64,000 bases of DNA from an uncultured Enterobacteriaceae bacterium (GTDB taxonomy: Bacteria > Pseudomonadota > Gammaproteobacteria > Burkholderiales > SG8-39), in the NCBI GenBank assembly GCA_964651335.1, contig CAZYVT010000001.1, positions 42,171 through 106,170 on the forward strand. The letters run 5' to 3'. A model generated the notes under the pieces. That model was given only the letters and a program-made list of their open reading frames with translations. It was not told the origin of the DNA and searched no databases. The position numbers and the translations under genes are program-made. Below are positions 33,860 through 40,168 of the stretch, piece by piece; positions within the stretch are counted from its first letter, which is position 1; every line of letters starts with the position of its first letter.

Positions 33860-35023
33860 ATGTTACCGGTGGGGGGGGCGAGCGGGAGCATGGTGGCGAG
33901 GATCTTCGCCGTCATGGCGCTCGTGCTGGCGGCATTGGTCTCTTCGTGGATCGGGATCGACGCCGGGCAATACGGCCGGGAGACCGTAACCGAAGCCTTG
34001 CGCCTGGCGCGGCGTGTGCTCGATGCCCGTTCGCTCGCCAACGAGCTGGTGGCGCGGCAGGCGGAGTTCGCCCTGGAGGCGCTGCGCACCGAGGGCGCCG
34101 TCGCGGCGGCCCATGAATACCGCAGGTCCTTCGCAGAGTTGCGTCAGGCGCTCGAGGAAGTCGGGCGCTTTCCGCTGGAGCAACGGGAACGGACGCTTCT
34201 CGCCGCAGTGCACCGCCAGGTGGAATACTTCGACCAGGTCAATGGCGAGATCTCGGCGCTGATTCAACGCGGCACGCGCGCGGACGAGCTCGCTGCGAGT
34301 GCCAAAGTGCTCGAGATTGCGGTGCCGCTCGGCGACGACATCGCGGCGCGGATCCGGGCGCTCGGCGCGACCGCGGTGGAGCGCGCGGAACGCACGGCGG
34401 AGGAAGCGGGCGCGGCGGCCGAGCGTGCCCGTGTCCTGCTGGTTGCATTCGCCGGACTGTCGCTGCTGGTTGCGTTGCTGCTTGCGCATTCGCTGGGCGA
34501 CGCAATGGCCAAGAGTGCGGAACTGGTGCGCCAGCTCGCGGAGATCGCGCGCGTGGACGTGCTGACCGGCCTGCCGAACCGGCGCGCGTGGGACGAGGAA
34601 CTGGTCAAGGGTCTGCACCGGGCGCGGCGGACCGGGCTGCCCTGCGCCGTGGCCATGATCGACCTTGATCATTTCAAGCGCTTCAACGACACCTTCGGCC
34701 ACCGGCGGGGCGACGCGCTGTTGCGCGCCACTGCGCAGGCGCTTGCCGCGCGACTGCGCGCCGGTGACCTGATCGCTCGCTATGGCGGAGAGGAGTTTGC
34801 CGTATTGCTGCACGGCTGCGACGCCGGCAATGCAGTGAGATTCTTCGAGCGCCTGCATGGGGCGGCGCCGAAGGGGCAGACCTTTTCTGCAGGCGTCACG
34901 GAGAGCGACGGTCGCGAAGAGGACGGCGAGGTCGTGCAGCGCGCCGATGATGCGCTGTACCGCGCCAAGGCCGGAGGCCGGAACCGGACTGAAGTGAGCG
35001 AGCGCAGCGCAGCAACTGCATGA
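33860..35023 (+). CDS. Diguanylate cyclase (GGDEF) with an N-terminal membrane/sensor region
   Basis: Active site RYGGEEFAVLL preceded by an RxxD I-site (RAGD). Alternative in-frame start at 33890. Confidence 0.85.
   Translation: MLPVGGASGSMVARIFAVMALVLAALVSSWIGIDAGQYGRETVTEALRLARRVLDARSLANELVARQAEFALEALRTEGAVAAAHEYRRSFAELRQALEEVGRFPLEQRERTLLAAVHRQVEYFDQVNGEISALIQRGTRADELAASAKVLEIAVPLGDDIAARIRALGATAVERAERTAEEAGAAAERARVLLVAFAGLSLLVALLLAHSLGDAMAKSAELVRQLAEIARVDVLTGLPNRRAWDEELVKGLHRARRTGLPCAVAMIDLDHFKRFNDTFGHRRGDALLRATAQALAARLRAGDLIARYGGEEFAVLLHGCDAGNAVRFFERLHGAAPKGQTFSAGVTESDGREEDGEVVQRADDALYRAKAGGRNRTEVSERSAATA
33871..33878. repeat. G8 homopolymer at codons 4-7 of the GGDEF gene (or in its 5' UTR if the 33890 start is used)
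   Basis: Read directly: ggt gggggggg cg. Confidence 0.9.
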
Positions 35024-36799: not shown

Positions 36800-38170
36800 G
36801 CGGACGAAACGCCCCATCTATCAGGACGGTCGCGCTCAGCGCGCGACCCAGGAAATTCACGGGCGCCTCGACCAACCTTCAACGCTGCAGCCTCCTATCG
36901 TCGATGGACTGGATTTTGTCGTTACAGCGTTGCAGGGATGAGCCGTGCGCCCTCGGGGATCACACCATCCTCGAGGTAGCGCCACAGCGCGATCAACAAT
37001 CGCCGCGCCAGGGCAACGATGCCGATGCGGCGCATGCGCGCGCCGGCGCCGGCGAAGCGCGTCTGATACCACTGGGTCAGCGCGCTCTTTGGCTGGAAGC
37101 GTAACCACAGCCAAGCGATCTCCACGATCATGGCCCGCACCCGGCGATTGCCCGCCTTGCTGATGCCCTGGTCGCGCTCACTGTCACCGCTGTTATAGGG
37201 CGTGCCCACCAAGCCGGCGAGGGCAGCCACTTCGCGCCGGTTGCGAAAGGCTCGCCAGGCGAAGAACTCCATCACCAGGAGCCAGGCGCTCGCCGGGCCG
37301 ATCGCCCCCAGGCGCATCAGATGAACGATCCTGCGCTCGGCGTCGGTTCGAGGGCTCTGCAGCCGCTCGCGACGTTTGGCCTCAAGCGCCCCGATCTGGC
37401 GCTCGACGAGTGCAAGGCGCTCCGCCTCGCGCTCAAGCTCCGCCTTCAGCTCCACGGGCAACGAATGGCCATCCCAGAGCGCGAGGCTGCCAAGCCGCAG
37501 CCGAAGCGCGCTCTTGATGGTGAGCCGTACGCCCTGCGTCACCAGCAAGGACTGTATACGAAGCCGATGCGCGAGCCGCTCGCGCTTCAGGCGCTCCAAC
37601 TCCCGGTGAAGGTGCCTGGCGTCTTCTTCCTCCACGCTTGGCACGCGCACCACGCTCCAGCCGCCGCGCTCGCCCGTGTGATGCCGAATGAGCTTCGCGA
37701 GCAGGCGCTCGCCGTCGAGCCGATCGGTCTTCACGTGGCGAAGCCTCCTGCTCACCTCGATACTGGCAGCGTCCACGACCTGATTCTCGACGCCGACGCT
37801 TACCAAGTGCCGATGCAGCCAAAAGCCGTCGCGGCCCGCTTCGTAACAGCTCATCACCCGGGCCGAGCCGGGCAGCTTGAATCGCTCCTTGGCCTTCGCC
37901 ACTACCTCGGCGAGCTTCATCAGGTCTGCCGCAGGCACCACCACCTGGCGGCGCTTGACGCCGTCGCCAAACGCAAGCCTCCAACTGGTGTTACTCAGTT
38001 CCAGCGCCATGTACAACACCGGCACCGATGCGCTACCTTCCGTTCCATGGGTCGCGGGGTTCATCTTCTGGTCTCCTTGTCTTCAAGGGTTGAGAAAGCC
38101 ACCAGAGGTTAACCACTGCGGCCCTACATAGGATCTATCCGTTGCGTGAAATGCTCCGGCGCCCTCAGAA
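36800..38170 (-). mobile_element. IS110-family insertion sequence (ends not determinable from this window)
   Basis: Contains the transposase CDS 36922..38064. IS110 elements usually lack clear terminal inverted repeats and I could not find any. Confidence 0.4.
36922..38064 (-). CDS. IS110-family transposase
   Basis: 380 aa with an N-terminal DEDD-type domain (ALELSNTSWRLAF, CYEAGRDGFWLHR, KTDRLDGERL). C-terminal transposase_20-type region (LMRLGAIGPASAWLLVMEF, LAGLVGTPYNSGDSERDQGISKAGNRRVR). Confidence 0.85.
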   Translation of the reverse strand: MNPATHGTEGSASVPVLYMALELSNTSWRLAFGDGVKRRQVVVPAADLMKLAEVVAKAKERFKLPGSARVMSCYEAGRDGFWLHRHLVSVGVENQVVDAASIEVSRRLRHVKTDRLDGERLLAKLIRHHTGERGGWSVVRVPSVEEEDARHLHRELERLKRERLAHRLRIQSLLVTQGVRLTIKSALRLRLGSLALWDGHSLPVELKAELEREAERLALVERQIGALEAKRRERLQSPRTDAERRIVHLMRLGAIGPASAWLLVMEFFAWRAFRNRREVAALAGLVGTPYNSGDSERDQGISKAGNRRVRAMIVEIAWLWLRFQPKSALTQWYQTRFAGAGARMRRIGIVALARRLLIALWRYLEDGVIPEGARLIPATL

Positions 38171-38185
38171 CACATCCCGACCCTT

Positions 38186-40166
38186 ATGCTATTTTTTGTC
38201 CGACTCATCGATCTTAGCGTTATCGAAGGCCTCGATCTAATTCGAGGGTCAAATGTCGAAATTATCGAGCGGGTTCGCCAGGTCTTCGACTTCCTTCCCA
38301 AAGAAACAAGAATTGAAGTGGCAGATGGGATCGTAACTATCGACATCCCAGATTCAGCTATTCACGACAAATCCGAAGCTGACCGTTTGCACACAAAGGC
38401 CACCCAGCGAGCCAAGCAGGGAGACTATCGAAAAGCGATAGGAATCTGGGAGCGTGTCATCGAACTTGACCCGGCGAACGTTGCGGCAAGAAGAAACTTA
38501 GGGATGGCTTACATGGAATTGCAGGAGACCGATAAAGCCAGAGAAAATCTGGTCGAAGCGGCGGTTCTTGATCCCAAGGATGCCTGGTCATTCGTGGTCT
38601 TGGGCAACATTCTGGCCAAAGAAAACGATTGGGGGGGGGGGAGAGCGTTTTCTTAAGCAAGCGCTCGAGCTAAAGCCGGAAGATGGCTGGGCCATGAATT
38701 CGCTTGGTGCTATCTGCACCGAGCGCCACAAGTACGAAGATGCAATCGCTTGGTTCGAGAAATCAATCCGCTCGAATCCCAAGTTCGCCAACGCTTACTA
38801 CGGCCGCGCCCACGCATTGGTCGGCATGGGCAGGCCGGAAGCAGCATTAGCGTCTATCGAGGAGCTTTTTCAAAAGGCCGAGCGGCAAGATGCGCGGTCA
38901 GAGTCAGTTTTTGGGGCGGCGCGCGAAACCTACTGGGAGACGGCCAAGGCGATCGCCAATATCAACAAGGAAAAAGCTGCCAAAGCCCTGGAAGTGTACG
39001 AGGAACATGTCGAGGATCTATCGGGCTATCCGGTGAAGGAAGAGCGGCATGAATTGGCAGCCATGATCGCCGGGCAAACACAAATGGCGTGGAAAAAGAA
39101 CCGCGATCACCACGTCCTTGCTATTCGCCCCGTCTATCCAGAACCTCTCTGGCAGCACGTCAAGGCGCACGAACTTACGCACATTGCCCTGGAAGCGGAA
39201 GCACGCGCGCTTGGCCGGAACAAGTGGTTCGGTACGACCGCCATCACCCGCGAGCGTGCAATCCACTCGATGGCGGCGGATATCAAAAAGCTCGAACGCA
39301 AGGGGCTCAATAACAAACACACCGCCGACCTAATGGTGGAACTACTCAATGGCGCATGTGGCTTTGTCTTCAATGCGCCGCTCGACATGATGATCGAGGA
39401 GCGCATTCGGGAGCGTCTCCCGGATTTGCGTTACAACCAGCTATGCTCCTTGGTTCAGTTGGCGAAGGAGGCGGAGAGCGTCTCGACAAACAAAGACGCG
39501 AGAGAGTTGACGCCAGGGCGAATCCTGCGTGTCAATGATGCCCTCAATGGAGCAATGGCGCTTTGGTTAAATGATTTCTCTGGGGGAATCGGCGATTTTG
39601 TGCAGAGCTACCGGAAGTTTGATGCGTTCCCGATAGCCCAGAAAATCTACCAGCATTTTCAAGCGCGCAATAAGGGCACGCTCAAACCGGGCGACGAATA
39701 CACGCTCGTCGACGATTTCGCGGAGATGCTTGGCGTCCGTGATTGGTACCAGTGGATCGATGACCCGGGTGTTGCGCCACAGACCGCGAGGAAGCAAGCG
39801 GCCGCGACAGACGATCAGCCGCAAGGAACTACAAACCCAGAGTTGCTGCGATCCAAGGACATGGCATCAACCATGTATCTATTGGCTGCGCTTGAGCGAT
39901 TCGAGAAACTCCCTGCGACCAAGGTCAAACAGATCGCGCTTGAAATCGCCGTACTCGGCATGAGTGGCTTGGACTACGCCGCATCGGAGAAAAAGTACAG
40001 ACTGAATGCTTTACCAGGAGAGGAATTCTCTGGTCTCGAAGTGATGTGCCTAATGCATGCTGGGCTTCGGCAAGTTGAACCTGGTATGGATACCGGAATG
40101 GATCTCGACGAGCCCTTTTCCACGGCCAAGAAACTTTTTGCGGCGAGAAGCGGAAAGGCTGGATAG
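38186..40166 (+). CDS. TPR-repeat protein with a C-terminal HExxH region, split by a frameshift in a G11 tract (ORFs 38186..38656 and 38568..40166)
   Basis: ORF1 ends ..NILAKENDWGGGRAFS*. The +1 frame continues GGGGERFLKQALELKPEDGWAMNSLG.., so a TPR repeat runs across the junction. G10 or G13 would give one 659/660-aa ORF. HELTH at 39168-39182. Confidence 0.65.
38631..38641. repeat. G11 homopolymeric tract inside the TPR/HExxH gene
   Basis: Read directly: gatt ggggggggggg agagcg. It is the exact point where the two reading frames switch. Confidence 0.95.
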
Positions 40167-40168
40167 TT

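Follow-up and report, generated by a model that had tools for sequence, protein, structure and literature searches.

A TPR–HExxH gene with a variable poly-G tract at the front of a restriction-type cassette, probably the OFF allele of a phase-variable, sensor-protease-like gene

What is a gene that is split across two reading frames doing directly in front of a nuclease-helicase gene? The locus that raises this question lies in a 64-kb window (contig CAZYVT010000001.1; by the window we mean the whole stretch of 64,000 nucleotides analysed here). The gene appears there on the forward strand as two open reading frames (ORFs) that overlap in different frames, 38186–38656 (156 aa) and 38568–40166 (532 aa). 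Joined, they encode a protein of tetratricopeptide repeats (TPRs) followed by a region that contains an HExxH motif, and we refer to it as the TPR–HExxH gene. On balance we believe, with rather more confidence than doubt, that the window carries the OFF allele of a phase-variable, sensor-protease-like gene that fronts mobile restriction cassettes. The frameshift, whose meaning the initial annotation had overlooked, is the most informative feature of the locus.

A length-variable poly-G tract within the gene

The change of frame between the two ORFs maps to a run of 11 G at 38631–38641 on the forward strand, the longest homopolymer of the window, and removal of one G yields a single product of 659 aa. 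To compare alleles of the locus, contigs with an identical helicase gene were retrieved from five sequencing runs. The contig from SRR12685320 (L120) aligned without a mismatch to 6,833 nt of the window; its single gap is a G10 in place of the G11, and this G10 allele encodes an intact ORF of 659 aa. An in-frame allele therefore exists in the same strain, and the gene of the window is intact but for one G. The G11 state was found again in L121 (SRR6155504), L122 (SRR6155509) and L128; a JGI metagenome contig is among its carriers. The repaired product of about 659 aa that had been proposed at the outset is thus borne out by a natural allele, and also by homologues: of the 113 proteins found with the C-terminal 435 aa as query, none has a functional name, most are 645–665 aa long and several exactly 659 aa. 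The gene at 38186–40166 is accordingly annotated as an OFF allele (G11, +1) whose ON form is G10. In the OFF allele the 5' frame (38186–38656) ends at TAA 38654–38656 after 156 aa, covering an N-terminal α/β domain and TPR1–3, and the tract itself codes for a Gly loop between TPR3 and TPR4 (DWGGGERF). A further contig, from SRR12685296 (L123), starts right at the poly-G tract (GGGGGGGGGGAGAGCG...); an assembly break at this place is expected if the reads there are heterogeneous or of low quality.

Tract length also varied among close relatives (81–94% identity), which carried an interrupted G5 (ON), G8 (OFF, in two samples), G9 and G10 (both ON), and the longer tracts G11 and G13 (both OFF). 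With lengths from G8 to G13 and both frames represented, slippage goes both ways. Across 114 non-redundant loci, we found 49 G/C runs of 8–13 nt within the gene, 31 of them in frame (ON), 16 out of frame (OFF) and 2 at contig edges. These runs cluster at six sites, around residues 147, 214, 318, 372, 442 and 500; the four main sites (about 147, 318, 442 and 500) fall in predicted loops and code for Gly or Pro. Tracts have thus arisen at six positions in different clades, both in and out of frame, and frame changes in family members coincide with them. Runs of at least 9 nt numbered 30 in 145 kb of gene sequence versus 4 in 932 kb of flanking sequence, an enrichment of about 48-fold. In the window, the only other G/C run of at least 8 nt is a G8 at 33871–33878, and there is no A/T run of at least 9 nt.

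The gene therefore combines a long tract within an ORF, length polymorphism and an excess of tracts over the flanks. From this length polymorphism and the independent origin of tracts at several positions, we conclude, as read from assemblies, that the TPR–HExxH gene bears the marks of a phase-variable contingency locus, and this is the strongest result of our analysis. Weighing against it, some of the variation in homopolymer length among assemblies may stem from mistakes in sequencing or assembly. Pseudogene decay was rejected in view of the intact remainder of the ORF and the existing ON allele, and programmed ribosomal frameshifting was rejected as the main explanation because the variation is at the DNA level (G10 versus G11). 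Transcriptional slippage on the tract may allow leaky expression. For annotation there is a practical warning, as 16 of 47 assessable tracts are out of frame and gene callers split those genes.

A conserved TPR protein with a zincin-like core

The repaired product would be a cytoplasmic protein of four parts: an N-terminal domain, five TPRs, an ImmA/IrrE-like zincin core and a helical C-terminal domain. AlphaFold modelled it with a pLDDT of 88.0 for the whole protein and 88.9 for aa 236–659. In the model, a small α/β domain at the N-terminus precedes ten paired helices at aa 58–230, which correspond to five TPRs (38357–38876, with the +1 shift at the tract). Consistently, Pfam TPR_1, TPR_2 and TPR_11 match aa 60–235 with E values of about 1e-21 to 1e-22, and TPR_1 and TPR_2, whose cut-offs are about 27, score 76.6 and 75.8 bits, which places the protein in the TPR clan, in agreement with the at least four to five N-terminal repeats noticed at the outset. 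Apart from the TPRs, no Pfam, NCBIfam or PADLOC family matched aa 236–659 above noise (for example DUF2322, E 0.05), and the earlier description of a region of about 430 aa of no recognised family stands.

The family is large, uniform in architecture and keeps the HExxH motif. An exhaustive profile search recovered 1,995 representatives of clusters at 50% identity with E ≤ 1e-3, of which 1,170 reach E ≤ 1e-10, all of constant architecture, and RefSeq labels the family simply 'tetratricopeptide repeat protein'. The motif, H328-E329-L-T-H332, lies at 39168–39182; it corresponds to H201, E202 and H205 counted from the ORF at 38568, as originally reported. Its conservation had been singled out as the point on which a metalloprotease reading would turn, and we examined it in an alignment of 52 full-length members with 33–89% identity. 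H328 is present in 52/52, E329 in 49/52, H332 in 49/52 and E336 in 51/52 members, and W302, H309, H324, R340, N396, P398, D400 and E404 are invariant. By our own estimate, a chance HExxH is expected in about 2% of proteins of such size. In three members (P0049, P0084 and P0094), HAxxQ or a gapped motif replaces HExxH in otherwise intact proteins, and these are apparently catalytically dead variants.

The structure prediction likewise put the motif in a helix positioned as in zincins and not in some arbitrary buried helix. Predicted strands at 283–287, 296–299 and 309–313, apparently a three-stranded sheet, are directly followed by helix 322–341, which carries HExxH, and then by a strand and long helices; the helices after this core strand bear the invariant N396, P398, D400 and E404. 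In the model, the order of strands and then the HExxH helix is the order of these elements in zincins. On the basis of the alignment, AlphaFold and hhalign, we delimit a zincin-like core at residues 280–412 (39024–39422). It is followed by a mostly helical C-terminal domain of unknown fold (residues 413–659, 39423–40163), defined by alignment and model, with the conserved blocks PGDEYxLVDEFA, GTTNPELL, GLDY and FSGLxLMCLMHAG.

Several comparisons hint at a link between this core and the M78 peptidases. Two of 30 members matched Pfam Peptidase_M78 across the motif (E 0.05–0.12; best 13.9 bits). For profile comparison, IrrE sequences were taken from PDB entries 3DTE, 8SLM and 9VZY. Against IrrE-type alignments, hhalign gave P values of 1.3e-4 to 5.6e-4 and probabilities of 30–54% over 67–82 columns, whereas all controls (reversed and 20 column-shuffled) gave P 0.023 or weaker. 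The alignment spans a 'DHHV-I' strand and an 'AHE(L/I)(T/S)H' helix and runs on through the following helix as far as a Pro present in both. A Foldseek search of the viral models in BFVD returned local sub-threshold matches to SprT-like, IrrE N-terminal-like and PolyVal metallopeptidases and to a 'peptidase', with probabilities of 0.8–0.97 and E > 0.7, which we treat as a hint and not as evidence. D (15 members), E (11) and Q (8) occur at position 385, which aligns with the third zinc ligand of M78; the other 18 of the 52 members have a different residue there, and P398 is the sole invariant element of the M78 ligand-helix signature ('E-x-x-C/x-N ... P'). Candidate third zinc ligands are E336 (51/52), D400 (52/52) and E404 (52/52), the latter two being invariant just past the position aligned with the IrrE ligand.

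A number of results weigh against a protease. The gathering score of Peptidase_M78 (PF06114), 22 bits, was reached by none of the 30 members. Searches of PDB sequences with a single sequence and with a profile gave no match, the top one being a His-tag artefact, and Foldseek of the C-terminal model against PDB gave generic helical bundles at best (E 0.9). Overall, neither a peptidase family nor a solved structure was matched significantly in Pfam, NCBIfam, PADLOC or PDB. Enlarging the M78 profile by database search added only Deinococcus-type IrrE and did not improve the hhalign probability. An acidic residue occupies position 385 in only 26/52 members, the M78 ligand Glu being unconserved; E329 and/or H332 is lost in 3/52; and no conserved small gene that might encode a helix-turn-helix (HTH)/XRE repressor-type substrate lies upstream or downstream in the family loci. 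Taken together, sequence and model make it plausible that the protein is a divergent ImmA/IrrE-like zincin that falls short of formal M78 membership. Proteolysis, and with it a substrate, we infer.

The cassette and its neighbours across the family

The stop codon of the TPR–HExxH gene (TAG, 40164–40166) and the GTG start of the helicase gene at 40169 are separated by 2 nt, as the initial annotation had noted. The two genes belong to a low-GC island (GC about 0.53 across 38000–43000 versus about 0.67 in the flanks) that consists of three genes in the same orientation: the TPR–HExxH gene, a gene for an 809-aa Nhi-like nuclease-helicase (40169–42598) assigned from Pfam, PADLOC and the layout in the literature, and, as the last gene of the cassette, one for a MazG-like nucleotide pyrophosphohydrolase (42637–43044, with a shorter call from 42685) defined by Pfam and DNA comparison. 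An IS110 transposase borders the block on the left and hemL and thiE/thiD on the right.

The 809-aa protein has a DUF2075/SLFN-g3 helicase domain at aa 265–612 (PF09848, E 6.7e-93), and PADLOC relates it to Nhi (E 6.6e-10), AbiO and PDC-S41. Its N-terminal nuclease is weakly detected (PDDEXK_9, E 0.05), and a D...ExK-like motif is visible, pointing to a probable PD-(D/E)xK domain. At its C-terminus lies a LexA/UmuD-like S24 domain (aa 671–761, nt 42179–42451); the Pfam match is weak, and the region contains dyad-type motifs with Ser (GESM) and Lys (TVKRY) as well as 'RIAAS' at the place of the LexA Ala-Gly cleavage site. Nhi and Nhi-like proteins have been described as single-gene anti-phage defences that combine a nuclease with a DUF2075 SF1B helicase (bioRxiv 10.1101/776245, 10.1101/2022.05.11.491447). 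The window's protein has the same N-terminal nuclease and DUF2075 organisation. In contrast to the described proteins, which act alone, it has an added S24 domain, unmentioned in these two descriptions, and its gene is flanked by the TPR–HExxH gene and the MazG-like gene.

DNA homology between the window and its relatives extends from 0–43 nt 5' of the TPR–HExxH ATG to the MazG stop. In one relative (L088) the entire cassette is about 89% identical to that of the window. In four others (L084, L091, L092 and L004), the TPR–HExxH gene (83–90% nt identity) and the MazG-like gene (83–91%) are well conserved, but the helicase between them is only 31–38% identical in protein sequence; TPR–HExxH copies 88–90% identical to the window's occur with helicases this divergent. 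The breakpoints of exchange lie at 40168–40182 and 42584–42671. Judged from these alignments, the helicase swap is a cassette-style allelic exchange inside the three-gene unit. Since the helicase is swapped and the TPR–HExxH and MazG-like genes are kept, we regard the TPR–HExxH gene as a conserved module with interchangeable effectors, and this modular pairing counts against a specific co-evolved complex with the helicase of the window.

We surveyed the neighbours at 80 loci from species-representative genomes, all of them metagenome-assembled genomes (MAGs), mostly of Verrucomicrobiota and otherwise of Chloroflexota, Planctomycetota, Beta- and Deltaproteobacteria and additional groups. Nearly all of the neighbours are modules of the DNA-restriction type, of many kinds. 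A Nhi-like DUF2075 gene lies directly downstream and co-directional at about 25 of the 80 loci, often with S24 (about 15 of these roughly 25 partners) and often with a MazG-like gene. McrB-like AAA_5 genes paired with DUF2357/PDDEXK_7 or McrC follow at 7 loci, type III Mod/Res at 4, type II methylase with nuclease at 3 and type I HsdM/HsdR at 2; Mrr, BREX (BrxA to BrxC), DUF499, SNF2 with NOV_C, DEAD with MZB, and a Dna2-like helicase-nuclease were found at one locus each. Further metagenome loci added a ResIII protein, DUF4007 and AlwI. No CBASS, Thoeris, retron or toxin–antitoxin module was seen among about 50 annotated neighbours. At 33 loci the next co-directional ORF begins within 30 nt of the stop, with several 4-nt overlaps. 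The upstream genes are housekeeping genes (alaS, aldehyde dehydrogenase, FGGY kinase) or the last gene of another defence operon (BrxL), indicating that the TPR–HExxH gene marks the 5' edge of the cassette. As a point against this association, about a quarter of the loci are followed by a gene that is convergent or has no evident role in defence.

These data bear on the proposal, made at the outset, that the protein may be a sensor or metalloprotease partner of the helicase and probably forms a complex with it. The metalloprotease part gains some support from the conserved motif, from its predicted placement and from the weak, above-control M78 similarity. The dedicated helicase partnership was not borne out as put forward, because the family sits equally tightly upstream of McrBC-like, type I to IV, BREX and other modules.

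A proposed role, its alternatives and known relatives

How might such a gene act? TPR arrays are protein binders, and the zincin-like core resembles the regulatory proteases ImmA, IrrE and CapP. We propose that the TPR array binds a protein cue and that the zincin then cuts a protein in trans, thereby licensing or guarding restriction-type immunity, here in a cassette that runs from the TPR–HExxH gene through the Nhi-like nuclease-helicase with S24 to the MazG-like gene. A trans-acting sensor-protease is favoured because the partners share only their class, namely NTP-driven, DNA-targeting restriction. As the partners are interchangeable, a regulatory protein or one of phage origin would be a likelier target than any single fixed partner. 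Slippage in the tract would gate production of the TPR–HExxH protein and, given that the helicase start lies 2 nt after the stop, would probably also lower expression of the nuclease-helicase in the OFF state through lost translational coupling or polarity, so that the tract may serve as a reversible on/off switch of the whole restriction cassette. The TPR gene's promoter may depend on insertion context, the cassette DNA starting no more than 43 nt before the ATG. A consensus scan found no sigma-70-like promoter or terminator, a point against our reading, and a repeat search for the cassette ends gave nothing informative.

More tentatively, and as a view that we think could well be wrong, the family may represent a widespread, unrecognised class of phase-variable sensor-proteases that acts as a portable master switch or guard of restriction-type immunity in environmental bacteria, the six tract positions reflecting strong selection for reversible silencing. 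One TPR–HExxH gene would then stand before Nhi-like, McrBC, type I to IV, BREX or other modules and license or protect them, for instance through cleavage of a regulator or of an anti-restriction protein made by a phage.

Among the alternatives, an autonomous abortive-infection protease resembling Lit is unlikely, though it fares best. Here the TPRs would sense a phage protein and the zincin would destroy an essential host factor; adjacency to restriction genes would reflect defence-island clustering and co-transfer with no functional coupling. It would account for the self-contained single-gene architecture, uniform across phyla, and for the loci that lack a co-directional defence neighbour. 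Phase variation suits a costly or toxic gene, and the Hymenobacter plasmid island described below also carries SIR2, PLD and AAA ATPase genes. Such a protease would not explain the strong neighbour bias towards DNA-restriction modules, to the exclusion of other defence types among the annotated neighbours, the tight spacing at the 33 loci, or the consistent position of the gene at the 5' boundary of the cassette, and no Pfam Peptidase_U49 match was found even at E ≤ 10.

We give still less credence to a dedicated helicase partner. By analogy with ImmA-type proteases that cut cI/LexA-like repressors, the zincin would complex the Nhi-like protein and cut the linker before its S24 domain, switching it on or off. 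The 2-nt spacing, the standing of the Nhi-like helicase as the commonest neighbour, the M78-like similarity of the core and the dyad-type motifs of the S24 domain, whose Pfam match is weak, are all consistent with this, as is a linkage that outlasts changes of gene order (in L005, L093 and L094 the helicase gene comes before the TPR–HExxH gene). However, at over half of the informative loci the protein is paired with unrelated McrBC, type I to IV or BREX modules that lack S24, copies 88–90% identical to the window's accompany widely diverged helicases, and certain loci have no adjacent partner.

Equally doubtful is a non-catalytic TPR scaffold or pseudo-enzyme, an adaptor or regulator in which HExxH is a structural or metal-binding relic. 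The lack of a significant peptidase-family or structure match, the unconserved third-ligand position and the three intact members with HAxxQ or a lost motif would fit such a relic. The motif is nevertheless retained in nearly all members down to 33% identity, H309, H324, D400 and E404 are invariant near it, the predicted order of strands and motif helix matches zincins, and the M78 similarity exceeds its controls.

Finally, we consider it very unlikely that an error of sequencing or assembly, or incipient pseudogene decay, produced the frameshift, with the homopolymers as incidental Gly and Pro codons. In favour of this view, several platforms are prone to errors in G/C homopolymers of 10–13 nt, long-read MAGs supply many of the relatives, and some frameshifts in relatives lie outside any homopolymer. 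Against it, G11 recurs in the window's own NCBI record, two Logan runs and one JGI metagenome, and G10 in another run is the sole difference over 6.8 kb. OFF alleles of both signs also occur in MEGAHIT (k141) and SPAdes (NODE) contigs, short-read-style by name, and long runs are enriched over the flanks and sit at six conserved loop positions. Decay is disfavoured in that the window allele is one base from the full ORF and that, for the remaining tract-linked OFF alleles, two frames suffice to cover the entire protein.

The preferred reading, a phase-variable sensor-protease at the front of restriction cassettes, has partial precedents. ImmA, IrrE and CapP are signal-activated, site-specific proteases, and CapP adjoins the CBASS defence system. 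Like them (PF06114), the TPR–HExxH protein appears to be built around a small zincin core, made up of a '(D/E)HH-V-I' strand, a loop that contains Pro, and the 'AHE(L/I)(T/S)H' helix. The helix after these closes with a conserved Pro, which in both lies 13 residues from the acidic position of the alignment. It differs in its sub-threshold M78 score (13.9 versus 22 bits) and limited hhalign probability (30–54%), in having no conserved third-ligand Glu and no adjacent HTH substrate gene, and in being phase-variable; where ImmA, IrrE and CapP have HTH and GAF-like domains, it has a TPR array and a helical C-terminal domain of 250 aa.

In phasevarions, mod, hsdS and res genes with simple-sequence repeats are known from Haemophilus, Neisseria, Helicobacter and Campylobacter. 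The locus studied here resembles such phase-variable restriction-modification loci in that the length of a homopolymer within an ORF sets the ON or OFF frame at a restriction locus, with the same bet-hedging logic. It departs from them in that the switch lies in an accessory gene and not in a methyltransferase, specificity or nuclease gene, in that the hosts are environmental Verrucomicrobiota, Chloroflexota, Proteobacteria and others, surveyed as MAGs, and in that six positions of a single protein family gained tracts independently. A protease or guard alongside restriction also has precedents by analogy: a phage peptide triggers Lit (from e14), a protease with HExxH, and the effector PrrC, whose gene lies within a type I restriction locus (EcoprrI), responds to phage anti-restriction. 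We detected no sequence similarity of the TPR–HExxH protein to either, and the architectures differ. Proteins with TPR_15 are enriched near GmrSD/COG1479 in type IV restriction neighbourhoods (PMC4619093), so that TPR genes have been statistically tied to restriction before; that report concerns a generic TPR Pfam family, without a catalytic domain, family definition or phase variation.

Our literature search, whose coverage did not extend to subscription-only papers, found no described TPR-metalloprotease companion of restriction systems and no description of this family. What is new is an unnamed protein family without a model, whereas defence-associated regulatory metalloproteases and phase-variable restriction loci are known kinds. 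If our reading is correct, a common accessory part of restriction-type defence is invisible to current annotation. Contingency-locus phase variation is known mainly from host-adapted pathogens, and it would here govern defence cassettes in free-living Verrucomicrobiota, Chloroflexota and Proteobacteria. With only one G between the ON and the OFF allele, the locus would then offer a testable handle on reversible tuning of the cost and benefit of nuclease-based immunity.

Several minor observations concern the surroundings of the gene and individual family members. The IS110-family transposase at the left end of the low-GC cassette (36922–38064, reverse strand), which we count as context rather than as a member of the system, occupies the same place in the independent contigs L120–L122 and L127–L128. 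The G8 run at 33871–33878 lies 11 nt inside an ORF for a GGDEF diguanylate cyclase (33860–35023). A distant family member, WP_269562337.1, is found in a cultured carrier, Hymenobacter canadensis PAMC 29467, on plasmid NZ_CP114769.1 (L125, 7782–23041); its sole annotation is 'tetratricopeptide repeat protein', the end of its gene overlaps a MazG-like gene, and the surrounding island contains DUF2075, AAA ATPase, PLD-like and SIR2 genes. One relative (L038, 8449–8633) has an internal duplication of about 130 nt in the TPR region, so that 'CCAGAAAAAGGGGCAAACACGCGAGGCTATCGACTA' is present twice; the duplication breaks the frame and inactivates the gene by another route than tract slippage. In another (L118, Ga0209514_10012017, 197–1443), a deletion joins the TPR–HExxH protein at about residue 358 to the helicase core, and the called product (P0111, 605 aa, with S24 and DUF2075 domains) represents a degraded copy of the cassette.

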